From IMG/VR virus record IMGVR_UViG_3300035152_000011: 64,000 nt of DNA. One strand, given 5' to 3'. A model generated the notes under the pieces. The model did no database searches. It saw only the letters and a program-made list of their open reading frames with translations, and was not told the DNA's origin. This DNA is from a virus. Both the position numbers and the translations under genes were made by a program. Every line of letters begins with the position of its first letter. The stretch's first letter is position 1. Below, in pieces: positions 28,816-64,000 of this stretch.

Positions 28816-29418
28816 GTGAGGGAACCAATGAGACGCATCAACTGGTCGAAGCAGCCGCTTGGCAAGGTGCCGGACCGCGTCCTCGCGGATCGTCTCGGCG
28901 TCAGCCGCCAGGCCGTCTGTCGCGCCCGGAAGCGGTATGCCAGCGTCATTGCAGCGCGCGCCCAGCACGCGGCGATGGCCAAGATGGACGAATTCTACGA
29001 CGGCGTTCGGATCTGCCGTGACGACCGCTGTCCCCGGGTCGAAGTGCACGCGGCACATCCTATCCATGAGGAGACCCCGGACCCGTTCTACGACGCGGCC
29101 TACCCGCATCGCCGTGAGCAGCACGGTGAGACGTTGCGCGACATCATCTACGCACACGTCCCGACCCGCTACTGCAAACCCTTCCAGGATCTCTACGCGG
29201 ACGTCATCGACGACTACGGCTACGTCAACACCCGTGCGGTGTATCGTGCGTTGAAGGTGCTTGTCGGCCGCGAACAGATCATCAACGTGTCCCCAGGCAA
29301 GGGCAAGCGTCTTCCAGGTGGCTACGTCCGCAGCGACAGTCCATTGCTGTCAGACTCTGAGGGCGTGGACTTCCTGCTGAGCACACTGGAGGATCAGCGT
29401 CCAACGAGCTGGATGTGA
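28816..29418 (+). CDS. HTH transcriptional regulator
   Basis: HTH LADRLGVSRQAVCRARKR; shares ICRDDRCPRVEVHAAHP motif with ORF 27052..27306. Confidence 0.5.
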   Translation: MREPMRRINWSKQPLGKVPDRVLADRLGVSRQAVCRARKRYASVIAARAQHAAMAKMDEFYDGVRICRDDRCPRVEVHAAHPIHEETPDPFYDAAYPHRREQHGETLRDIIYAHVPTRYCKPFQDLYADVIDDYGYVNTRAVYRALKVLVGREQIINVSPGKGKRLPGGYVRSDSPLLSDSEGVDFLLSTLEDQRPTSWM

Positions 29419-32400
29419 GGCTACGGCCGCAAGCGGGACAGGGGCCGGTTCTGCGCGCTGCGCCGGCCCCGATGATTCGAGGCACTGTAGATGGCGCGTT
29501 GTGCAAGGACTGCCCGTTTTCCAAGAACGGGCAGCCCAACCGCGCTGTTGCCGGTGAGGGCTCAGCACGCCCCGACTGGATCATCGTTGGTGAGGGACCC
29601 GGCCAGAACGAGGTCGCCCTCGGCCGGCCGTTCTGTTTAGTGCCTGAAACACCGGTATTGATGGCCGACTTAACGTGGAAGCCACTAGGAGATGTGCGCG
29701 TCGGTGATCGTGTACTGGGCATCGACGAGCACGCTCCTCCGGGTCGCGGAGCGAGTGGCCGCAGCGCCCGTAAATGGCACGTCGCTGAAGTCACGGCCAC
29801 GTTCCGACGACGCACAGAAGCCATTCGCGTAACCACTGACAAGGGCATCTTGGAAGGCAGCGGGGATCATCCCGTCTTGGTACGGCAAGGTGGACATTTC
29901 AAGTCCAGCACGGGCAGCGGCTGTTGGCTGAAGATGGGCCAGACCCAGGCTGGAGCTAATCGGTACTCACGCATCATGTTCGTCGGACGCCCCTGGACAC
30001 AACGTACTGACTACTGGGCCGCGTGGCTTGCAGGGTTTCTTGATGGTGAGGGCCACGTTCTAGGCTCGAAGTCGCGTAGCAAACGCAAGAAGGATTGCAA
30101 GGCTGGATTCTCGCAGAACGAGGGGCCAGTGAATGATCGCGCGTGTGCAGCAGTACGCGCGCTCGGCTTCGATTTGAATGCTAAGGAAGAGAGCCGTACT
30201 AATGGCATTGTGTGTTGTCGCTCAACCGTTCGAGGCAGTGTTGCGACGACGATGCGCTTCTTGGGTGAGATCCGCCCTGAACGGCTGATCGATAACTTCC
30301 AAACGACAATCGAGGACAAGTCAATTAGAGGTCTGTCCTCTGGACGTGTGCTCAACCGCGAACGTATTGGCGTTCGGGATTTGATCGACATCACAACCAC
30401 GACTGGGACATTCATTGCCAACGGTTTCGTGGTGCATAACTGCGGTGCGTCGGGCCAGCTCGTCAACAAAGCGCTTGACGCTATCGGCCAGGACCGACGT
30501 CGCCTGTTCGTGACCAACGCGACGCTGTGCCTGCCGACACCAGACGCCACCGACGGCGACAAGAACAAAGCGCGCAAGTGCTGCGAGCCCCGCTTCACTG
30601 CTGAGATGGCACAACGCCCCGAGATACCTGTGCTCGCGCTCGGCGCCGTCGCTACGCAGGCGATGCTCGGTCGTAACGTCTCCATTCAGGAGATGGCGGG
30701 GTCCTATCACCAGGTCAACACTGACGGCTCCGGTTTTCGTGCGGTGATTCCTACGATCCACCCTGCGGCGATCCTCCGCGGTGGTGCGGGCATTGGCGGG
30801 GCGCATTCACCTGACATCGCCTTCTGGAACCTGATGTACGACGCCGCGAAGGTCAAGTCCATCGCCGAGGGCAAGGACATCGTCTTTCGCGAAGACGACA
30901 TCGTCATCGAGTACACCGACCCGAAGCGAGCTGAGCAGCTCATGCGCGAGATGCTCAAGGAAGCTCGCCGTATGCGCATGGTCGCGTGCGATACCGAGAC
31001 CTACGTCGATGACGAGCAACGCCACTCCGCGTTGCAGCCCATCAACGCCAAGCTCAGTGCTATCGGCTTTGCCACGCCCAACTGGGGACTCTCGCTTGCA
31101 TGGAACGTCGTCACGCCAGCCTGCAAACGGCTTATGGCTGCGCTTATGGCCGATCCCGGTGTCCGGCTGGTCATGCACAACCGGATCTACGACCGCGGGG
31201 TACTCCGACGTCACGGCATGCCGGTCTACGGACCGTGCGACGACACGATGTTGAAGCACCACTGCGCGTTCCCGGGCCTCTCCCACAACTTGCAGCGGGT
31301 CGGCACTCAATACTTCGCGATCACGCCCTGGAAGTCGGAATTTCGTCAGGGCAAGGACACCATCGAGAACCTGTGTCGGTACAACGCCAAGGACACACTG
31401 GTCACGGCGCGTCTCGATGAGCCTCTCGACATCGCGATGGAGCGTACCAAGTCGCACCGGTGCTACGAGATCGACTTGCTCTGCGCCGAAGCGGCTGAGT
31501 GGATGTACGACGCGGGCATCCCAATTTCCCGTGAGGTGAACCAGAGCCTCTACGATCAGTTCTGGGAGAACATGCAGCGGTCACGCGCTGAGATCGAGGA
31601 GAAGGCCAACGATCCAGCTATGCGCGAGAAGCTCCTTGACCGTGTAGCGCTCGAACAGGCTAAACGTGTCCGTAAGGGTTCGCCCGCAAAGGTGGACCCT
31701 GAAGAGTTTGAGGTGCGCCAGCAGGTGCGCCTCGACGAGATCCGCATCCAGGCCGATAAGGGCGCCTGGAAATGGAATGTCAACTCGAAGGCGCACTTAG
31801 CCGGTTGGCTCAAGGTGCACGGCCTGAAGCCGCCGGTCACCAAAAAGGGCGCTGCCAGCGTCACGAACAAGTGGCTCAAGGACCAGGCTGACAAGCACCC
31901 AGCCATCAAAGCGCTCTACGAGTGGCGTCTAGGTAAGAAACAGGACGACACTCTCCGCGAGATCGTTGACGGTGACGCGGCCCGGCCAGAGATCCAAGAA
32001 GAGCTATGGGTTGCTATTGCCTTCGAGCAGGCCAAGACGATTCGCAAGCCGACGGGCAAGCCGCCCGACCCGGAGGACTTCGAGGAGCGTCAGAAGGTGC
32101 GGCTCAAGGAGCTGCTCGATGCGGCCGAGAAGGGTCAATGGGAGTGGAATGTCGGCTCGTCCGATCACATCGCAGCCTATCTCAAGGCTCGCGGCGTGCC
32201 CCTCTACTTCCAGACCGAGAAGGGCGCGACCTCGACGAAGAAGGAGATCCTGGAGAGCTTCGCGCACATCCCCGAAGTCCGCGCGCTGCTCGACTACCGC
32301 GAGAACCAGAAGATGTTCTCGACCTTCGTCTACTCGTTCTTCGACCGGTACGATGAAGACGGCAATATCGTCAAGTACGGGCACGCTGATCAGAACGACC

Positions 32401-33242
32401 GCCTGCATCCGCGCTGGAACGTCCATCGCATCACTGGCCGTTGGAGCGCTGAGGACCCGCAGAGTCAGAACTGGCCCAAGGCCGATAAGAAGAAAGGGCG
32501 GCCGAATCTGCGCTCACAGGTCGTCGCGCCCGACGGCCGCATCCTAGTCGGCTTTGACTTCGCGCAGCTCGAAGCACGCATCATCGCGTTGCTCTCAGGC
32601 GATCCATTCCTCTGCGACATCTTCACGTCGGGCAAGGACATCCACAGCGAGTTTGCGCGCATCGTCTGGCCCAACTTCGACGACCTGCCGTACGAGCGCC
32701 GAAAGGTGCTACGCGATACCGTGAAGCGGCCGGAGTACGGTGCATTCTACGGCGGGTCCATCGAAACGCTCTGGAAAAACGTCGTCAAGGACTACCCGGA
32801 CGTGAAGCAGGCCGACATCGCGCGCATGGTCACGCTGATGACCGCGCGTATGCCCGGCGTCACCATCTGGCACCAGCAACTTCTCCGCAACGTGGCCCGA
32901 CCTCCGCACGAGCTGCGCTCAGCGATCTACGGCCGGCGTCGCTGCTTCCCGCTTGGGAACGCTGACATGAATGACGTCTTCAACTTCCCGGTCCAGGCCA
33001 CAGGATCCGACATTATGGCCACCGGCCTGATCCGCTTGATGCCGCGGCTGCGTAACAACTACGTCAACGCGAACCCGATCATCCAGATTCACGACGCCAT
33101 CGTCTTCGAGTGCGACGAGGAAGACGGCGACCGCCTTATGGCCGATGTGAAGGAGTGCTTCGAGCAGACGCACACCCATAACGGCGTGACAGTCGATTTC
33201 CCCGTCGATCCCGCAAAGGGAAGGAGCTGGGCCGATGTCTGA
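29415..33242 (+). CDS. UDG (family 4)-DNA polymerase I (family A) fusion with intein
   Basis: UDG4 motif GEGPGQNEVALGRPF then intein then CGASGQLV and HPAAILRG. 3-prime-5-prime exo DEDDy (DTETY, HNRIYDRGVL, YNAKDT). Pol motifs A VGFDFAQLEARI, B RRKVLRDTVKRPEYGAFYG, C IQIHDAIVFE. Confidence 0.85.
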   Translation: MRLRPQAGQGPVLRAAPAPMIRGTVDGALCKDCPFSKNGQPNRAVAGEGSARPDWIIVGEGPGQNEVALGRPFCLVPETPVLMADLTWKPLGDVRVGDRVLGIDEHAPPGRGASGRSARKWHVAEVTATFRRRTEAIRVTTDKGILEGSGDHPVLVRQGGHFKSSTGSGCWLKMGQTQAGANRYSRIMFVGRPWTQRTDYWAAWLAGFLDGEGHVLGSKSRSKRKKDCKAGFSQNEGPVNDRACAAVRALGFDLNAKEESRTNGIVCCRSTVRGSVATTMRFLGEIRPERLIDNFQTTIEDKSIRGLSSGRVLNRERIGVRDLIDITTTTGTFIANGFVVHNCGASGQLVNKALDAIGQDRRRLFVTNATLCLPTPDATDGDKNKARKCCEPRFTAEMAQRPEIPVLALGAVATQAMLGRNVSIQEMAGSYHQVNTDGSGFRAVIPTIHPAAILRGGAGIGGAHSPDIAFWNLMYDAAKVKSIAEGKDIVFREDDIVIEYTDPKRAEQLMREMLKEARRMRMVACDTETYVDDEQRHSALQPINAKLSAIGFATPNWGLSLAWNVVTPACKRLMAALMADPGVRLVMHNRIYDRGVLRRHGMPVYGPCDDTMLKHHCAFPGLSHNLQRVGTQYFAITPWKSEFRQGKDTIENLCRYNAKDTLVTARLDEPLDIAMERTKSHRCYEIDLLCAEAAEWMYDAGIPISREVNQSLYDQFWENMQRSRAEIEEKANDPAMREKLLDRVALEQAKRVRKGSPAKVDPEEFEVRQQVRLDEIRIQADKGAWKWNVNSKAHLAGWLKVHGLKPPVTKKGAASVTNKWLKDQADKHPAIKALYEWRLGKKQDDTLREIVDGDAARPEIQEELWVAIAFEQAKTIRKPTGKPPDPEDFEERQKVRLKELLDAAEKGQWEWNVGSSDHIAAYLKARGVPLYFQTEKGATSTKKEILESFAHIPEVRALLDYRENQKMFSTFVYSFFDRYDEDGNIVKYGHADQNDRLHPRWNVHRITGRWSAEDPQSQNWPKADKKKGRPNLRSQVVAPDGRILVGFDFAQLEARIIALLSGDPFLCDIFTSGKDIHSEFARIVWPNFDDLPYERRKVLRDTVKRPEYGAFYGGSIETLWKNVVKDYPDVKQADIARMVTLMTARMPGVTIWHQQLLRNVARPPHELRSAIYGRRRCFPLGNADMNDVFNFPVQATGSDIMATGLIRLMPRLRNNYVNANPIIQIHDAIVFECDEEDGDRLMADVKECFEQTHTHNGVTVDFPVDPAKGRSWADV
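29634..30440 (+). mobile_element. intein (LAGLIDADG homing endonuclease type) in UDG domain
   Basis: Begins CLVPETPVLMADL (Hint N-terminus), contains WLAGFLDGEGHV, ends FVVHN followed by extein Cys. Confidence 0.75.
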
Positions 33243-35209: not shown

Positions 35210-37315
35210 TTGGCGCCCGAACTGGATGTTGGGATTGGCGCCAGCACTACTGCTCCTGTTCCTTGCCCTGCAATGGATTCTCTAATGGACTACATCGACA
35301 AGACCTTCTCGCTCGGCGGCTACCTTGCGCAGCACCACTCCGGCTACGAGGTGCGCGAGGGCCAAGTCGCGCTTGCACGGCAAGTCCACACCGCGATGAA
35401 GAAAGAACGGACGCTGCTCGCTGAGGCTCCGTGTGGGTCGGGCAAAGGATTCGCCTACGCGGTTCCAGCTATCGAGCAAGCGCAGAAGAAACGGCGCACG
35501 GTCATCGTCACGGCCAACATCGCATTGCAGGCCCAGCTCATCGAGAAAGACTTGCCGACGTTGGCCAAGGCGCTGCCCGTGCCGTTTCACGCAGCGCTGC
35601 TCAAAGGGCGCAACAACTTTCTGTGCAACCACAAGCTCTTCCAGATAGACACCATGCGCCGGGCGATGGGCGAGATGGCGTTTCGTAAGTCGTATGGGCT
35701 CTCTCGGACCCAAGAGGATCTACTTCTTGCGGTCCTTGCGTGGGCTGATACGACCCATACCGGTGATCGCGAAGAGCCGCAGTTTCCCGCCGACGCGGCC
35801 GGCTCCGATGGTATTTGGCATCTCGTCTCTGTTGGTCAGGATGACTGCATCGGTCGCGGTTGTGCAGCCGCCCGTGAGAGGACGTGCTGGGCCAACAACC
35901 ACCGCCGCGAGGCGTTGAAGGCCAATATCATTGTCACCAACTACCACTTGCTCTTCGCGCACTGCAAGCTCAACGCGCTGAACCCCACGAATGGCATCCT
36001 GCCGCGCTTCGAGAACTTGGTCATGGACGAAGCGCACGAGGCGGCACGCATCGCACGAGACTTCTTCGGCGCGCGCATCAGTTACCCACGGTTCAAACGG
36101 ATCGCCGAGATGATGAAGCACGAGCTGAAGCTCGACGGCAAGGCCATCACTGATACAGGTCGCTGGCTCATGCAGGCTGTGGGCGCCTGCGCCGAGACCA
36201 TCGAATACCGCGCGAAGGGTCGCCTCGACAAGGCCGACATCATCGACGTTGAGGATACCGTCAAGCTCCTCCGAGAGGCCGTGAACGCGGCGTCCAAAGT
36301 GGCCGACGAAATCTGCCCAAGTAGCGAATGCTACGCGGGGCTGAGCGACGAAGCCCAGGAGACGTACCACAAAGCGAGGATGGTGGAGCGCAACGCAGAA
36401 ATCCTTGCGCATGACGTCAATGAAGCGTTCCACACGCCGCACGAAGACAGGGTCTACTGGATTCAGATCGAGAAGAGACGTCCGATCCGTGTCGAAGCGC
36501 GGCACCTCGACGTGGCCGACGTGTTCCGCACGCGGGTACTTCCCCAAGCGCGTTCGGTTACGTTGACCTCGGCGACGCTCACCGCGATGGGTACCTTCGA
36601 TCTGGTGCGCAGCGAGTTGGGCATTGGGAAGGCGATGGAATTCGTAGCCGAGTCCCCATTCGATTTCCGCGCAAGCGCACGACTGGTCGTCGCCGACAAG
36701 AAGCGCCTCGCGCCGGCCAGCCAAAATCGCGAACAGTACAACCATGCGGTACTGCCCTTGTATAAGGAGATCCTCGACCTCTGGCCTGGCCGAACGCTCT
36801 GCCTCTTCACGGCGATCACCGACCTGGAGTGGATGCACGAGCGCCTCGACGGCTATGGCGGCCGCACGGTATACAAGCAAGGCGAGTTTTCGCGTCCGCT
36901 CCTCGCGCAGTACTTCCGCGACGACGCGGAGTCAGTGCTTATGGGCGTGGATAGCTTCTGGACCGGTGTTGATGTACCAGGGCCGAAGGCGATCATCATT
37001 CACAAGCTGCCGTTCCCGTACCAGGACGTCGTGCTCAGGGCTATCGCAGCGCGCATGTCCAAGGACGAGTGGTTCAAGGGCCGTTACTACCCGTGGATGA
37101 TCACCAAGCTCCGACAGGGTGTTGGCCGACTGCTGCGCCGAACAGGTGACTACGGACTCATCATCTGCATGGACCGACGCATCACCGACAAGTGGGCCTA
37201 CGCCGACGCTATTCGGCGCAGCCTGCCGTTCCAATCCTTCATCCGTACTGACGAGCTGTACAAGCTCAAGCCCTTCCTCCAGTCCAATGCTGATGACCAA
37301 GCCATCGCTGTCTGA
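35210..37315 (+). CDS. DinG/Rad3 (XPD)-family ATP-dependent helicase
   Basis: Walker A AEAPCGSGKGFAY, DEAH box VMDEAHEAA, about 700 aa with helicase C-terminal motifs. Confidence 0.8.
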   Translation: MAPELDVGIGASTTAPVPCPAMDSLMDYIDKTFSLGGYLAQHHSGYEVREGQVALARQVHTAMKKERTLLAEAPCGSGKGFAYAVPAIEQAQKKRRTVIVTANIALQAQLIEKDLPTLAKALPVPFHAALLKGRNNFLCNHKLFQIDTMRRAMGEMAFRKSYGLSRTQEDLLLAVLAWADTTHTGDREEPQFPADAAGSDGIWHLVSVGQDDCIGRGCAAARERTCWANNHRREALKANIIVTNYHLLFAHCKLNALNPTNGILPRFENLVMDEAHEAARIARDFFGARISYPRFKRIAEMMKHELKLDGKAITDTGRWLMQAVGACAETIEYRAKGRLDKADIIDVEDTVKLLREAVNAASKVADEICPSSECYAGLSDEAQETYHKARMVERNAEILAHDVNEAFHTPHEDRVYWIQIEKRRPIRVEARHLDVADVFRTRVLPQARSVTLTSATLTAMGTFDLVRSELGIGKAMEFVAESPFDFRASARLVVADKKRLAPASQNREQYNHAVLPLYKEILDLWPGRTLCLFTAITDLEWMHERLDGYGGRTVYKQGEFSRPLLAQYFRDDAESVLMGVDSFWTGVDVPGPKAIIIHKLPFPYQDVVLRAIAARMSKDEWFKGRYYPWMITKLRQGVGRLLRRTGDYGLIICMDRRITDKWAYADAIRRSLPFQSFIRTDELYKLKPFLQSNADDQAIAV

Positions 37316-38192
37316 GCTTCCCGAGCGCGCTCACGCGTCGCCCATCGTCAGGTGGGTCGGCGGGAAGCGCTGGCTCGTCCCCGTCGTGTCCAACATCGCC
37401 TACGACTATCTGAGCGATACAAGGGGACGCTACATCGAGCCGTTCCTCGGAGGCGGCGCGGTCGCGGCCGACCTGGGACTACCTGACATGCTCCTGGCCG
37501 ACCTCTGTGAACCGCTCATCAACGCCTTCCAGCAGGTTCGCCGCAGCCCAGACTCCGTGCTCTGGTCACTTAGGAACTACCGACGACGCGGCGTGGACGC
37601 AGACACCTACTACAAGATCCGGGCGGAGTGTCCTCGCGGGAAGGTCCAGCGCGCAGCTTGGTTTTTCTACATGAACGCGCTCTGCTTCAATGGCGTCTAC
37701 CGTGAAAACTCGAAGGGCGAGTACAACGTCCCCTACGGTGTTCGCAAACCAGGAAAGAAGCTCCCCGGCAAGACGCCGATGGTCAGCCATTCCTTCCTCA
37801 ACAAGAAGAGGCTCACGCCATTCGTCGATGCCGTCCGCGGCGCAGAGCTGACTGCGAGCGATTTCCGGCCGATCATCAAACGCGCTACCGACGGTGACTT
37901 CGTGTTCGTGGACTCACCTTACTTCGGGGTCTACTCGAACTACCTCAAGGAAGGCTTCGGCGTCGCGGACCACGTTGACCTTGCGCGTGAGCTACGCGCG
38001 GCCGCAGAGCGCGGCGCTGCTTTCATCGCAACCAACAACGACGTGCCCGAGGTGCGTCGTCTCTACCGTTGGGCGCATATCACACGTACGGGCGAGTTTC
38101 GACGCGTAAATCGTGACGCGAAAAAGCGTGGGAAAGTCGCCTGTCTGCTGATCGCGTCGGGCCGCGACCTCGTTGGTTCCGCCGCAATCTGA
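37287..38192 (+). CDS. Dam-like N6-adenine DNA methyltransferase (D12 class)
   Basis: IVRWVGGKRWL N-terminal motif, catalytic DSPYF (DPPY-type). Confidence 0.7.
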   Translation: MLMTKPSLSELPERAHASPIVRWVGGKRWLVPVVSNIAYDYLSDTRGRYIEPFLGGGAVAADLGLPDMLLADLCEPLINAFQQVRRSPDSVLWSLRNYRRRGVDADTYYKIRAECPRGKVQRAAWFFYMNALCFNGVYRENSKGEYNVPYGVRKPGKKLPGKTPMVSHSFLNKKRLTPFVDAVRGAELTASDFRPIIKRATDGDFVFVDSPYFGVYSNYLKEGFGVADHVDLARELRAAAERGAAFIATNNDVPEVRRLYRWAHITRTGEFRRVNRDAKKRGKVACLLIASGRDLVGSAAI

Positions 38193-38206
38193 TCGGATCT
38201 GCGATC
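38191..38206. promoter_or_regulatory. operator-like IR GATCGGATCTGCGATC
   Basis: Followed by TTGACG and ATG 38239. Confidence 0.45.
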
Positions 38207-38238: not shown

Positions 38239-38481
38239 ATGTTGGATCACGCAAACCCTAAGAAGGTCGCGAAGTTGGCGGAAAAGAAGAAACAAGGCCC
38301 CCTCGGGATGGAGTGCGTGAAGTGGCACTACCGTGATGGGAAGCCTTGGCGCTGCGCTCGCTTCCGGCCGCCAGAAAAGCCGACGCTCGGCACGACGAAG
38401 CCGAAGCGAAGGGCCAAGCCGAAGAAGGCAAAGCCTGCCGCCAAGCCAAGGACCACGGCCAAGCGGAAGCGCAACCCGTAG
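38239..38481 (+). CDS. lysine-rich basic DNA-binding-like protein
   Basis: 80 aa; C-terminal KPKRRAKPKKAKPAAKPRTTAKRKR. Confidence 0.45.
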   Translation: MLDHANPKKVAKLAEKKKQGPLGMECVKWHYRDGKPWRCARFRPPEKPTLGTTKPKRRAKPKKAKPAAKPRTTAKRKRNP

Positions 38482-38490
38482 GAGGAGATC

Positions 38491-38595
38491 ATGGCGAAGA
38501 AGAAAGCCAGAGCCAAGGGCCGTTGTTTGAAATGGAGCAAGGGTCGCACGAAGTGCCTCAAGCGCGCCAAGTCGCGCAAGCGTCGCCGGAAGTAG
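38491..38595 (+). CDS. very small basic protein (34 aa)
   Basis: MAKKKARAKGRCLKWSKGRTKCLKRAKSRKRRRK; GGAGG RBS. Confidence 0.3.
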   Translation: MAKKKARAKGRCLKWSKGRTKCLKRAKSRKRRRK

Positions 38596-38660
38596 CGCCG
38601 GCCCCCGCTCTCAAACCGTCAACCTAAACCCCAGGTGTCGAGCCTGGGACAACTTCCTGG

Positions 38661-38813
38661 GAGGGAAACATGGCACGCAAGAAGAAAGCCAAGAAGGCCC
38701 AGTGGAAGGTCGTCTCCAAGGCGGCCGGCACCAAGGGCAAGGGCAAGCTGAAGAAGGGCTGCAAGTACGGCCGAGGCCGCTACAAGGGCAAGATCCTCTG
38801 CATGAAGAAGTAG
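38661..38813 (+). CDS. small basic protein (50 aa)
   Basis: MARKKKAKKAQWKVVSKAAGTKGKGKLKKGCKYGRGRYKGKILCMKK; followed by terminator hairpin. Confidence 0.4.
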   Translation, partial: EGNMARKKKAKKAQWKVVSKAAGTKGKGKLKKGCKYGRGRYKGKILCMKK

Positions 38814-38837
38814 GGACAGCCTGCCCGAATGGGAGAC

Positions 38838-38866
38838 GGCGTGCGGGTTGCCGCACGCCGTTTTCT
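38838..38866 (+). terminator. rho-independent terminator
   Basis: GGCGTGCGG-GTTG-CCGCACGCC stem-loop followed by GTTTTCT. Confidence 0.6.
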
Positions 38867-38909
38867 ATGTCTGGGTGATCGTAGCCGCGATCCAGTGTAG
38901 TATCGACGC

Positions 38910-39275
38910 ATGGCCCGTGACCTGTGCAGGCGCCCCAGCCTACGCGACGTCCATTTCTTCAGTCAGCATGCCGGCTACGTGGAGGGCCGCAAGCTCGAAG
39001 GGTCACTTCAGCTCGCCCGTGCAGAATGCGCAGCCGATCAGATGGGTTGGACGACCGAGTGGATTCCTGACTACGAGCCTGACCTGTCGTGGATGACGCC
39101 AAAGGAGCAGCGCGAGCCCCATGAGGTCTTCTGCGCGTCCATGACAAGCCCGAACGGCGACCACCAGGCCTCGATCTGTGGCATCGTCGATCCCAGCTCG
39201 GCTGACCAACGCGTCATCGAGGCCTCGCTCGCGCTCGAAGCGCGTGCCTACCAACGACTTCAGAGGAAACGCTGA
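38910..39275 (+). CDS. hypothetical protein
   Basis: 121-aa ORF. Confidence 0.4.
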   Translation: MARDLCRRPSLRDVHFFSQHAGYVEGRKLEGSLQLARAECAADQMGWTTEWIPDYEPDLSWMTPKEQREPHEVFCASMTSPNGDHQASICGIVDPSSADQRVIEASLALEARAYQRLQRKR

Positions 39276-60780: not shown

Positions 60781-63700
60781 TCAACAACGCGAGAAGCCGC
60801 AAAGCGCGCACTTGGCGCATCCCTCGCCGTAGTAGAGTGCGACCTGGTGGCAGTCAGGGCAGATGTCGCCGAAGCGGTGCTTGTGTCCGTTGCCGTTCGA
60901 CTTGCCGTTGCCGTTGCTGTGGCCGTTGGAGGGCTTCACAGCGACTGGCGGCGCCGTCACAGCCTTAGCAAGCGCCTCGACGGGGGTGATCGTCTTGGCC
61001 GCCTGGCGAGCTTCCAGGGACTCTGCAAGCGAACGGAGAGCCTTGGCGACGCCATCTGGCAGTGAGAGCACTCGATCCTGGCCGAAGCCAACCGAGTCGC
61101 CGCCGCCGATGCCCGACAGCTGGTCGGCGATGAGCTGAAGTCGCCGCTCAGGCTTGATGGGACTGTCCATGCGGAGGACCAGCGACCCGAGGCGGGCGAT
61201 GGCCTCGCAGTCAGCGCTCACGGCCGTTCCAGCTCGGGACACTGCGAGCCAGGTCTCGAACGGCCGGTCGTTGGTATCCAGGCCGACCTTGACGCTGAGC
61301 TTGCCGGTCGGCGTCTTCACCATCTGCCCGAGCAGGTCGTAGACACCCGTCGGGATCGGATGAAGCTCCGGCCGGGCGATGCTCGCGCCGATGGTCAGCG
61401 TTTGGCCCTCGCGGCTCTTGTCGCGGTAGACCGTGATGCCCTTGCACCCCTCGTCCCAGGCCATACGGTAGGCCTGCTCGACATCCTCGACGGTCGCGCC
61501 CTCGGGCAGGTTGATTGTGTTATGGGACACGATACCGTTTACAACGTACTCGTGTGCGGACTCGACTTCGATGTCAAACATCTCTACCAGACCGGCATCT
61601 TCTACCGCCCGCACTAAGTAGACCGGAGTATCTGTGGACCAGCCCATCGCATGAGCAACACGGTTCGTGCAGTAGTGTCGGCCTGTCTCTTGACGAAGGC
61701 TTCGGACAGCACCGTAGTGGGGATGATCGGTCGGCACATGCTGATCAAGAACGGCCCGGTCGAGCAATACTTTGTAGCTCGTGGATGCTGGTTGTGCATT
61801 CTTGTGCTTTTCGATGCACTGCACGATCTCCTGAGCAGCGTTGCTCAAGATGACGTAGTGAAAAACACCGCCCGGAGCGCCTTTGTGGCCCTGATACACG
61901 GAGGGGAGCCCAAAACTTCGTGCCAGTTCGGCGACGTGGTATGCGAGTGTTTCGGACATGCCGCCGTATACACAGAGCGCGCCGCGTACGAGATACCCGT
62001 CGAGTGTGACGCCGCGAAGGAATGCGCGTTTCTCATCCGCGCTACCTTGAAGAACTTGAATAGGAGCGCGCTTCTCGAACGCGCCCTTCCCGATCAGCGC
62101 CTCTACGTAACGGACCAGATTGCGGGATGTGAGGTAGACGCAACGAACGCCTGTTCGGCGATCTTCGACGGTACGCGGACTGACGTTGAAGACCTCATTT
62201 GTCAACGTGATGAAGCGCGCTTCGACCTCTTCGTCCTTGCAGCTCAGTCCGACTTGTCCTGTGGACTCGACTGTATGGCCATCAGCGCATAGCATTCCCA
62301 GCCATTCAGCCAGTGGCGGTGTCATCGCCTTGGGGGTAGCGATACGTGACGCGTTGGTATGCCACTCATCGGACCACTGGATTGTAGCATCACCGGGCCC
62401 GTGCGCTGCCATGAACCGTCCTAGCACTACGTCGCCGATCTTCAGATCCCGCATGAGCTTCCAGCCATCTGCTGTCTGCACTCGATGCGTAGCCTCGGCG
62501 CCAGTTAGTACGGCACCGTTGTCTAGTTTGATTCGTACTGCACGCCCGATACCGAGGCGGTAGTGCGACAGAATACGGTGACCGCCCGTCGTGACGCTCT
62601 GGTCCAGTTTTTGGAACGTGTCGTCCGCGGTCACGTCTGAGAACGACTCGACTGGGACAAGTCCCATTGACGTGGGAATCAACGTCCCCGCGGCAAGGCA
62701 CTTCGATACGGCGTCCTCGACGTGGCGCTGAAAAGCGGCCTGCATACGGATGTGGTACTCGGGGCTGATCTCGTTGGCGATGGCGAACACGCGCTGCCAA
62801 CGCGACGGTACGTCCGGGTCGTCCTTGACGGTGCCGTTCTCCTTCACGCGTTCGAGCAGCTCTTCACTGTAGAACCCCTCGCGCTTGGCGACCTCGATGA
62901 ACATCGGGTTGACGTCCACCATCTCCATGTCCGCTTGCTTGCGGGTCTGGACGATAGCGAACAGCGGCTCGATGCCACTGGAGCACCCGGCGATGATGGA
63001 GATGCTGCCAGTGGGTGCGATGACCGTGCAGGTCGCGTTGCGGCGATGCTTGCGGCCGTTGGTGAAGTGCTTGGATTTCTCGAAGAGCGGGAACGGTCCT
63101 CGGAGCGCAGCCAGCTCTTCACTGGCCTCGACGGCCTTGGTCGCAATGAACCGCTCGACCTCTTCGGCCAGGTCGAGAGCCTGCTGCGATCCGTAGGGGA
63201 TTCCCATCTTTACCAGCAGGTCAGCCCAGCCCATCACGCCCAGCCCGATTTTCCTACTCGCGCGGGTCTGCTCGTGAATCTGTGAAACCGGATATTGATT
63301 GACGTCGTGGACGTCATCGAGGAAGCGCACCGCATCCTGGATGACCTCTTCGAGCCGCTTGAAGTCGATCTTCGCCCCGACTGCGTCGTCGAGGTAGAAG
63401 TTGGCCAGGTTGATCGAGCCGAGGTCGCAGGCGTCGTACGGCCGGAGAGGGACCTCCCCACACGGATTGCACGCCTCGACCTCGCCCACGGCGCCCGCCA
63501 GCGGGTCCAGCTCGTTTACCCGGTCGAGGAAGAACAGTCCCGGTTCCCCTGACGCGTGTGCGTTCTTCACGACGTGGTTCCAGACGTCGCGCGCACGGAG
63601 CGTTCCAGTCACTTCCTTCGTGCGGGGATTGACCAGCTCGTACTCCGTATCCTCATCGACAGCCTTCATGAAGGCGTTGGTGACTCCGACGCTGATGTTG

Positions 63701-64000
63701 AAGTTGCACAGCTCGTTTGGGTCCCGCTTGCAGTCGATGAAGCTCAGGATGTCAGGGTGGTCGATGCGCAGGATACCCATGTTGGCCCCGCGGCGCACAC
63801 CGGATTGCTTCACACATTCAGTGACATGGTTGTAGGCCCGCATGAACGAGACGGGCCCGCTGGCGATCCCGGTCGTGGACTTTACGAAATCGCCAGCGGG
63901 CCGCAGCCGACTGAATGAAAAACCGGTGCCTCCACCGGTCTTGTGGATCATCGCCATGTCTCGCAACGTGGTGAAGATCCCTTCCATCGAGTCTTCGATG
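60781..64000 (-). CDS. nrdJ: class II (adenosylcobalamin-dependent) ribonucleotide reductase with intein; N-terminus beyond window
   Basis: GGGTGFSFSRLRP, AVSK/TINLP active-site region split by the intein, C-terminal CPDC...CAKC Zn ribbon; ORF still open at the window end. Confidence 0.85.
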   Translation of the reverse strand, partial: IEDSMEGIFTTLRDMAMIHKTGGGTGFSFSRLRPAGDFVKSTTGIASGPVSFMRAYNHVTECVKQSGVRRGANMGILRIDHPDILSFIDCKRDPNELCNFNISVGVTNAFMKAVDEDTEYELVNPRTKEVTGTLRARDVWNHVVKNAHASGEPGLFFLDRVNELDPLAGAVGEVEACNPCGEVPLRPYDACDLGSINLANFYLDDAVGAKIDFKRLEEVIQDAVRFLDDVHDVNQYPVSQIHEQTRASRKIGLGVMGWADLLVKMGIPYGSQQALDLAEEVERFIATKAVEASEELAALRGPFPLFEKSKHFTNGRKHRRNATCTVIAPTGSISIIAGCSSGIEPLFAIVQTRKQADMEMVDVNPMFIEVAKREGFYSEELLERVKENGTVKDDPDVPSRWQRVFAIANEISPEYHIRMQAAFQRHVEDAVSKCLAAGTLIPTSMGLVPVESFSDVTADDTFQKLDQSVTTGGHRILSHYRLGIGRAVRIKLDNGAVLTGAEATHRVQTADGWKLMRDLKIGDVVLGRFMAAHGPGDATIQWSDEWHTNASRIATPKAMTPPLAEWLGMLCADGHTVESTGQVGLSCKDEEVEARFITLTNEVFNVSPRTVEDRRTGVRCVYLTSRNLVRYVEALIGKGAFEKRAPIQVLQGSADEKRAFLRGVTLDGYLVRGALCVYGGMSETLAYHVAELARSFGLPSVYQGHKGAPGGVFHYVILSNAAQEIVQCIEKHKNAQPASTSYKVLLDRAVLDQHVPTDHPHYGAVRSLRQETGRHYCTNRVAHAMGWSTDTPVYLVRAVEDAGLVEMFDIEVESAHEYVVNGIVSHNTINLPEGATVEDVEQAYRMAWDEGCKGITVYRDKSREGQTLTIGASIARPELHPIPTGVYDLLGQMVKTPTGKLSVKVGLDTNDRPFETWLAVSRAGTAVSADCEAIARLGSLVLRMDSPIKPERRLQLIADQLSGIGGGDSVGFGQDRVLSLPDGVAKALRSLAESLEARQAAKTITPVEALAKAVTAPPVAVKPSNGHSNGNGKSNGNGHKHRFGDICPDCHQVALYYGEGCAKCALCGFSRC
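61519..62700 (-). mobile_element. intein with LAGLIDADG homing endonuclease in nrdJ
   Basis: Starts CLAAGTLIPT after ..AVSK, contains LAEWLGMLCADG and KRAFLRGVTLDG, ends VVNGIVSHN followed by extein TINLP. Confidence 0.75.

Follow-up and report, generated by a model that had tools for sequence, protein, structure and literature searches.

Five small lysine-rich proteins with paired cysteines, candidate DNA-condensing proteins of a large virus of a prokaryote

The condensation of viral genomes by proteins is textbook knowledge for adenoviruses, baculoviruses, ascoviruses and chloroviruses, and is held to be absent or marginal in tailed phages. In ascoviruses, P64 is an abundant virion protein that contains four 2-cysteine adaptor (vs2C-ad) motifs and Arg/Ser repeats and binds, precipitates and condenses DNA; it is expressed early and later moves to the virion core (PMC6163548). 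For vs2C-ad itself, which also occurs in fusions with kinases and OTU peptidases, the function is described as unknown (PMC6163548). The PBCV-1 basic-adaptor proteins A278L and A282L were recovered with the virion DNA (PMC3281028). Phage T4 packages three small basic internal proteins, each in about 300 copies, which bind DNA at low salt, enter the head with the genome and are afterwards ejected; their conservation is poor, and unrelated basic proteins take their place in relatives of T4 (PMC9026906). In this work we analyzed a stretch of 64,000 nucleotides (nt) from the IMG/VR virus record IMGVR_UViG_3300035152_000011, hereafter called the window, and focused on five small, strongly basic proteins, P1 to P5, encoded in two clusters. 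The source is a large double-stranded DNA virus of a prokaryote. Judged from their sequences, the five proteins would be virus-encoded basic nucleoprotein modules, a known kind of protein, here found in a prokaryotic virus and split into miniproteins. We tentatively propose, as a possibility somewhat short of even, that together they coat and partly condense the phage genome and travel with it into the capsid.

All five open reading frames (ORFs) that an earlier note on this DNA had pointed out were found, on the + strand. The first cluster comprises P1 (38239-38481; 80 amino acids (aa), 33.8% Lys plus Arg (K+R), net charge +22, 2 Cys), P2 (38491-38595; 34 aa, 55.9% K+R, net charge +19, 2 Cys) and P3 (38670-38813; 47 aa, 42.6% K+R, net charge +20, 2 Cys), and the second P4 (50407-50613; 68 aa, 39.7% K+R, net charge +25, 4 Cys) and P5 (50620-50952; 110 aa, 27.3% K+R, net charge +26, 4 Cys). 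The sizes originally given (80, 34, 50, 68 and 110 aa) were right for four of them, the third ORF measuring 47 aa from its ATG. A K+R content above 30%, claimed for all, holds for P1 to P4 (34-56%), with P5 just below that value. The two sequence strings quoted as examples are both present, MARKKKAKKAQWKV within P3 and KPKRRAKPKKAKPAAKPRTTAKRKR within the tail of P1. The isoelectric points (pI) of the five proteins range from 10.9 to 12.0, and Lys (18-36%) dominates over Arg (6-24%), compared with averages of 4.7% Lys, 8.1% Arg and 1.6% Cys in the long ORFs of the window. When all ORFs of at least 25 aa in the six frames of the 64-kb window were filtered for K ≥ 15% and K+R ≥ 28%, only P1 to P4 passed, and 30 shuffles of the window yielded zero ORFs passing this filter. 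With a stricter filter (K+R ≥ 38% and at least two Cys) most unrelated control loci gave no match; two marginal matches turned up overall, and one of these belongs to a longer called gene, as its C-terminal portion.

The five ORFs are real and conserved genes of the phage. At least five related phage contigs preserve their position and frame (related loci and contigs are labelled L0xx below), in four further lineages (L004/L003, L011, L012 and L013/L014) the P1-P2-P3 cassette directly follows the genes of the helicase and of Dam, and most of the small genes, of 33 to 48 aa, were also called independently by the gene callers of the source pipelines. Conservation of the frames in relatives had been proposed earlier as a check, and the cassette indeed proved to be kept in frame under purifying selection; changes in the length of the basic tails between relatives are in-frame indels throughout. 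P2 to P5 are preceded, 5-9 nt upstream, by Shine-Dalgarno-type GGAGG/GGGAGG sites; no ribosome-binding site was found upstream of P1, which has a conserved GTGACATG context. The Lys codons are AAG in 72 cases versus AAA in 13, in agreement with the G+C bias of the genome at third codon positions (GC3). Lys-rich DNA always opens antisense frames, and a minus-strand ORF of 83 aa (38328-38579; GC3 0.81) overlaps the cassette, so that one might see in the five ORFs chance open frames of AAG-rich DNA, or look for the coding sequence on the opposite strand. We give this explanation practically no credence. The 20-residue core of P2, KGRCLKWSKGRTKCLKRAKS, does not vary among four lineages (the window, L011, L012 and L013). 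Its 60 nt differ at several sites, and each of these differences is synonymous when read in the + frame but non-synonymous in any of the three minus frames. Moreover, the ribosome-binding sites, the cysteines and the frames are conserved across lineages, and shuffled sequence gives no such ORFs. The antisense ORF was rejected as a gene on this substitution pattern and is a by-product of AAG-rich DNA.

P1 is built of a conserved module (residues 1-47), comprising a helix and a Cys-bracketed beta-hairpin, CVKWHYRDGKPWRC, and of a disordered Lys/Pro/Ala tail (residues 48-80, KPKRRAKPKKAKPAAKPR) with 42% K+R. Its orthologues are present in all five related lineages, with a nearly invariant N-terminal module and a tail that diverges in sequence while its composition is kept. 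AlphaFold2 predicts a helix at residues 7-17 and a hairpin at residues 25-43, with a predicted local distance difference test score (pLDDT) of 72-82, places the Cys pair on the hairpin and leaves the tail unstructured. In P2 the core KGRCLKWSKGRTKCLKRAKS (C-x9-C) is flanked by a basic N-tail and a basic C-tail, and L004 has a diverged two-Cys version of 36 aa. P3 begins with the N-tail MARKKKAKK and ends with a Cys-bracketed loop, CKYGRGRYKGKILC; L011 and L012 retain it, apart from in-frame indels in its tail. At the position of P3, L004 (7362-7466) and L013 (4410-4511) encode an unrelated basic twin-CX3C peptide of 33-34 aa, MARRRRPKVATCAKKCKGKKMRAFRACVRRCAKK, here called P3b, whose cysteine pattern is that of the alpha-hairpinin (helical-hairpin) peptides. 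Since this turnover preserves form, in the P1 tail, in the P2 of L004 and in the replacement of P3, selection appears to act on size, charge and Cys pairing more than on sequence. A separate observation concerns the nucleotide level: the P3 core (38716-38775) and the P1 hairpin region (38325-38384) are up to 98% identical to L011 and L012, compared with 68-88% for the neighbouring coding DNA, and their synonymous sites are also frozen. This suggests that the regions were exchanged recently, or that an additional constraint on the RNA overlaps the coding one.

Small, cationic and cysteine-paired as they are, and with a peptide of alpha-hairpinin-like cysteine pattern standing in for P3 in L004 and L013, the proteins could be compared with cationic antimicrobial peptides and might act as lysis factors that attack the outer membrane, in the manner of the phiKT disruptin, which replaces spanins, or of disulfide-stapled hairpin peptides and alpha-hairpinins. 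A cationic lysis peptide is indeed known from a phage (bioRxiv 10.1101/515445). For P1 to P5 we consider such a role very unlikely. Large hydrophobic residues make up just 12-21% of the proteins, the helical hydrophobic moment is 0.33-0.42 versus 0.89 for LL-37, with no hydrophobic face, and uncharged stretches reach at most 2-6 residues. Pfam and PHROG scans recognised no lysis genes in the vicinity, and the surroundings are of the replication type. P1 to P4 contain no signal peptide and no membrane segment and show little amphipathicity.

Each of the five proteins has an even number of conserved cysteines (2 or 4). Their spacing is C-x12-C in P1, C-x9-C in P2, C-x12-C in P3, and C-x12-C plus C-x10-C in P4, and it is conserved in the orthologues. 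P1 to P4 each join one or two such short hairpins to unstructured Lys/Arg tails. When the window is translated in all six frames, the motif C-[VLI]-[KR]-W appears just three times, in P1, in P2 and in the second hairpin of P4, and is followed each time by C-x-[KR] 6-9 residues further on (C-[VLI]-[KR]-W-x6-9-C). The restriction of this motif to P1, P2 and P4 indicates that the two clusters, although 12 kb apart, share one specific module. P4 consists of two Cys-bracketed hairpins, CKAKYKSGPKRGKC and CIRWRKTKPKTC, and has homologues that are 81-90% identical in two other metagenomes. Its N-terminal half matches the N-terminus of P0023 (locus L034; members of the P5 family are labelled P0xxx) with 42% identity over 45 residues (E = 8e-7 in pairwise BLASTP, 6e-6 in phmmer). 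In P0023, a hairpin with a clear relationship to the first one of P4 is joined to a P5 domain, which belongs to the subfamily found in the window; this fusion, together with the adjacency of P4 and P5 in the window, indicates a functional link between the two. In the distant phage contig L018 a 32-aa gene, MAKKRVCKFGKVKRGKRKGQCLKNKRPRKKRK, follows the Dam gene and precedes a P5 homologue by about 600 nt.

P5 had been described, like the other four, as resembling a histone H1 or protamine tail, and here the description fails, as a confidently folded and conserved domain was found instead. A basic N-tail (residues 1-24, 38% K+R) precedes a folded four-Cys domain with the signature GW..APK..R..L..CG.KAFLDPKNLKYPVMAK.GPC..NC.G..AA, and the core is strongly conserved in 16 close homologues. 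The AlphaFold2 model (pLDDT 82.6) contains a short helix, a beta-hairpin and a helical hairpin. Fold searches of the PDB with the models of P5 and P1 returned only generic helical hairpins or nothing, and P5 has no match among the solved structures. Among predicted viral structures the P5 model is matched best by an uncharacterised Pithovirus protein (E = 5.9e-3, template modelling (TM) score 0.66, 2.0 Å). An exhaustive profile search seeded with P5 retrieved 1015 cluster representatives at E ≤ 1e-3, of which 478 at E ≤ 1e-10, with lengths of 80-400 aa and the consensus GW..APK...R..L..CG.KCFL.P..LK[FY]PIC....C..DC.G..AA..RA.Q. The family, for which Pfam has no model, thus comprises at least 1000 sequence clusters and is found in phages as well as in giant viruses. 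As far as the searched libraries show, both this domain family and the Cys-hairpin miniprotein module specific to the clade of the window would be undescribed before.

The counts that follow refer to the 150 best members of the P5 family. Residues W17, P22, F40, P43 and P49 are each kept in 140-150 of them. The first and fourth cysteines (C1/C4) occur together in 143 members and are jointly missing from 7, without a discordant case, and C2/C3 are both present in 92 and both absent in 53, the window's subfamily included, with 5 discordant. We infer from this gain and loss in pairs that the cysteines form disulfides rather than a four-ligand metal site. P5 is probably a small folded domain stabilised by disulfides, and the pairwise covariation points to an oxidising place such as the virion.

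The regions flanking the domain in the family are also often basic, with a 20-residue window of at least 40% K+R in 68 of the 150 members and of 60% in 14; examples of tails are Arg/Ser repeats (RRSTRKSRR, seven times) and SPKK-like repeats (KKRSSPV and KSPAHKKKRV, both repeated). As a side observation, SAP-like helices were noticed in two members, through one weak, sub-threshold Pfam match in P0119 (E = 0.0061) and through reading of the P0142 sequence. Thirteen members begin with [IV]-x-N-P-x-[ST]-G-R-x-I..GG, which in Pfam is the 2-cysteine adaptor PF08793 (vs2C-ad); P0037, P0082 and P0141 score 27, 25 and 22.6 bits against this model, whose gathering score is 22 bits. The PBCV-specific basic adaptor PF08789 matches two of the 150 members (best E = 8.9e-6). 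In P0106 the P5 domain is preceded or followed by a prohead serine protease on one side and by a scaffold-like acidic tail on the other, and the gene lies between the portal and major capsid genes, a context and a fusion which place that copy of the domain inside the procapsid. We also noted P0154, a protein of 378 aa that ends in a P5 domain and whose middle region weakly matches an ADP-ribosyltransferase toxin (E = 0.0013). By analogy it recalls the packaged Alt enzyme of T4, and the P5 domain may serve there as a targeting module.

These architectures can be read in another way, in which the proteins are adaptors and not condensers, with Cys hairpins that dock proteins, as has been proposed for the 2-cysteine adaptors of giant viruses, and basic tails through which an enzyme would be recruited to DNA, for instance a kinase, a protease or the Dam methylase encoded next to them. 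The vs2C-ad and PBCV basic adaptor motifs in members of the P5 family speak for it, as do the fusions of the P5 domain to a protease and, weakly, to the ADP-ribosyltransferase-like region of P0154, the fusions of vs2C-ad to kinases and OTU peptidases, and the location of P1-P3 directly after dam in every relative. However, most family members stand alone or have basic tails only, no partner can be named, and P2 and P3 are almost all charge, with little surface for specific docking. On balance we regard an adaptor function as improbable.

By sequence, P1 to P5 appear to lie outside the families of ascovirus P64, the PBCV-1 basic-adaptor proteins and the T4 internal proteins, with which they share a design. 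Searches with the five proteins and two variant peptides gave nothing usable in Pfam (E ≤ 1), PHROGs or NCBIfam (E ≤ 10); in particular, models for histones, protamines, HU, IHF, H-NS, Hc1 and small basic ribosomal proteins in Pfam and NCBIfam did not match P1 to P5, nor did PF08789, and PHROGs gave no match to T4-type internal proteins. The resemblance to H1 or protamine tails put forward in the earlier note therefore stands for composition, the P1 tail being rich in Lys, Pro and Ala, and not for homology, as no histone or protamine model matches. Two weak PDB matches, of P2 to the Cx9C helix of the complex I subunit NDUFS5 (domain E = 0.19) and of P3 to a fucose-lectin repeat, were judged to be chance results of short, biased queries. 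The vs2C-ad pattern, two conserved cysteines about 11-12 residues apart around a short hairpin in a basic setting, is also seen in P1 to P4, an agreement in pattern only, which is no evidence of homology; the core motif of PF08793 between the cysteines, [IV]-x-N-P-x-[ST]-G-R, is absent from P1 to P5.

Like ascovirus P64, the proteins are virus-encoded and combine small two-Cys modules with strongly basic low-complexity tails and a pI near 12, and relatives of P5 have true PF08793 motifs and Arg/Ser repeat tails. Unlike them, P64 comes from a eukaryotic virus and is one protein of 64 kDa, in which 4 adaptor copies are combined with 14 repeats, whereas here five proteins of 34-110 aa are encoded by a prokaryotic virus. 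P64 is rich in Arg/Ser, whereas P1 to P5 are rich in Lys and none of them matches PF08793; since Ser is scarce, control by phosphorylation is unlikely for P1 to P5. A278L and A282L of PBCV-1 are likewise viral and basic, and their PF08789 domain occurs in the two P5-family members mentioned above, but they are kinase fusions of 63-69 kDa, and the window proteins have no PF08789 match. The internal proteins of T4 are small, basic and from a phage, and their replacement in relatives parallels the exchange of P3 for P3b; they differ in their size of 8-20 kDa, in a capsid-targeting sequence cut by the prohead protease, in the lack of conserved Cys pairs and, for IPI, in a specific anti-restriction role. 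Protamines (mammalian protamine P1, baculovirus P6.9, adenovirus Mu/VII) are also very short and extremely basic, and in mammalian protamine P1 the cysteines cross-link after condensation. They are, however, Arg-rich (for protamines and P6.9 the mark applied was an Arg share above half, compared with 6-24% in the window proteins), belong to eukaryotic nuclei or viruses and show no homology to P1-P5. The Lys/Pro/Ala composition of the P1 tail is shared with the tails of H1, AlgP, chlamydial Hc1 and the HupB C-terminus, but the window proteins lack the winged-helix, HU or Hc1 domains of H1 and the bacterial H1-like proteins.

In the mechanism that we propose, the Lys/Arg tails would bind the DNA backbone non-specifically and neutralise its charge, while the Cys hairpins and the P5 domain would provide small stable knobs for self-association or for the docking of partners. 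P1 to P5 together would coat and condense the phage genome and most likely enter the capsid with the DNA, and the Cys pairs would oxidise and lock once the particle leaves the cell for an oxidising exterior. In function the proteins would then correspond, in a phage, to the core proteins of giant viruses, ascovirus P64 among them. Condensation and packaging gain indirect support from the architectures found in the P5 family and from the giant-virus analogues. For experiments, the locus provides a small, conserved and tractable group of candidate DNA-condensing proteins of a phage, and, as proteins of 34-47 aa routinely escape gene callers and tryptic proteomics, comparable components of other phage particles have perhaps been overlooked.

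Several points weigh against coating and packaging of the genome by these proteins. The heads of tailed phages are densely packed, and there is no evidence that basic proteins contribute much to the neutralisation of phage genomes (PMC3281028). By our estimate, roughly 14,000 copies would be needed to neutralise about 145 kb completely, a number that is not plausible; partial neutralisation would be feasible with a few hundred to a thousand, the level known from T4. The genes of P1 to P5 are surrounded by genes of replication and nucleotide metabolism (helicase, Dam, exonuclease). Structural genes were not recognised in PHROG and Pfam scans of 30 other window proteins, and in the absence of a recognised structural module the distance to head genes cannot be used as evidence. 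P4 is not present in the close relatives L001 and L016 and is thus dispensable. PF08793 did not match P1 to P5 at E ≤ 1, and the fusion to a prohead protease is a single case among the 150 family members. A homology of P1-P3 to the flanks of P5-family proteins was not significant, the match between P4 and P0023 alone being so. Finally, hyperbasic two-Cys mini-ORFs were rejected as general companions of P5, with none, or one marginal case, in 16 further P5-relative loci, so that the miniprotein set is a speciality of this clade.

The gene neighbourhood leads to the main alternative, which we hold to be possible but doubtful and in which the proteins, made along with the products of the replication genes, remain in the cell as unpackaged nucleic-acid binders, compacting or silencing the host nucleoid, or binding replicating phage DNA or RNA and ribosomes. 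Their genes lie at the heads of transcription units among the helicase, Dam and exonuclease genes, on the same strand, and the distant phage L018 again has helicase, Dam and miniprotein in this order; a secretion signal was not found, and size and charge are like those of small ribosomal proteins. The position of the genes does not discriminate between packaged and unpackaged proteins, as P64 is expressed early and is nevertheless a virion-core protein. No model of a nucleoid or ribosomal protein matches, a reducing cytoplasm does not readily account for the cysteines of the P5 family, which covary in pairs, and the prohead-protease fusion, the protamine-like tails and the giant-virus affinities point to virion cores. 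Coming back to packaged proteins, a stronger version, which we find unlikely, is that this clade packages its genome with disulfide-stapled polycationic miniproteins, true phage protamines, made with the kit of two-Cys hairpin, P5 domain and basic tails that serves giant eukaryotic viruses for their nucleoprotein cores. If true, it would overturn the view that the DNA of tailed phages is neutralised by small cations only, and would reveal a core-protein module common to phages and giant viruses.

P1-P3 is a self-contained transcription unit. A 16-bp palindrome with two GATC sites, GATCGGATCTGCGATC (38191-38206), lies 33 nt upstream of P1 and is a probable promoter or operator element heading the unit. 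The P2-P3 intergenic spacer (38596-38669, + strand) is 90% identical to that of the relatives and contains the hairpin CCCAGG-tgtcgag-CCTGGG and a second CCTGGG, which overlaps the ribosome-binding site of P3; from its sequence, the spacer could form a switch hiding this site. The unit ends with an intrinsic terminator (38838-38866, + strand), GGCGTGCGG-GTTG-CCGCACGCC followed by GTTTTCT, which was spotted by eye, was missed by the sigma-70/terminator scanner and was confirmed by folding (-37.7 kcal/mol, z = -5.2 for 38814-38875). Its stem is kept in L004 and L013 through different sequences, with compensatory changes. A copy of the palindrome, GATCGTAGCCGCGATC (38877-38892), heads the next unit and is followed by TGTAGTAT, with an ATG 7 nt further on. 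Directly before the ATG of the 121-aa gene at 38910 we observed GTGTAGTATCGACGC (38895-38912; conserved in L011, L012 and L013), which resembles an extended -10 element in a position suited to a transcript without leader. In the second cluster, the palindrome GATCGTAGCTGCGATC (50379-50394) lies 13 nt upstream of P4.

With the consensus GATCGCAGCTGCGATC, which includes two Dam (GATC) sites, the palindrome has about 15 sites in the window (at 445, 2800, 5613, 6475, 9838, 13486, 25071, 38191, 38877, 42331, 49315, 50379, 52434, 58480 and 59475), corresponding to 28 strand matches versus 1.24 expected from shuffles. The sites are mostly found just upstream of gene starts, on either strand. The phage carries its own Dam methylase gene alongside these GATC-bearing palindromes, which are a candidate methylation-sensitive promoter/operator element acting genome-wide.

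The window has a base composition of about 62% G+C and is densely coding. Upstream of the first cluster are a family A DNA polymerase of 1275 aa (29415-33242), which unites a UDG-superfamily domain, a 3'-5' exonuclease and the polymerase in one protein, a DinG-like helicase (35210-37315) and the Dam methylase gene, which ends at 38192. The second cluster is preceded by an RNase T-like exonuclease gene (49610-50347), which adjoins a full-length TnpB (IS605 OrfB, Cas12f-like; 47917-49152). An SNF2 helicase, a PD-(D/E)XK nuclease, a primase-like protein and, on the - strand, a ribonucleotide reductase with an intein carrying a LAGLIDADG domain (60781-63987) are also among the identified genes. 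A single tRNA-His was the only match of an Rfam scan. GenBank contains no close phage record, and related contigs of 57-150 kb are present in the IMG/VR, JGI, Logan and NCBI metagenomes.

Some minor observations were made in these surroundings. TnpB is located at the same place in L015 and L016, with no TnpA evident, and its closest cellular homologues are only about 33% identical. The Dam methylase of L011 (1867-3954) is a protein of 695 aa in which a faint LAGLIDADG match interrupts the methylase domain, the Dam methylase of the window being uninterrupted. Lastly, an 878-aa protein (17143-19779, - strand) matches the shoulder domain of the Major Vault Protein (E = 1e-28) and the vault repeat (E = 3e-9), a vault-protein homologue being unusual in a prokaryotic virus.

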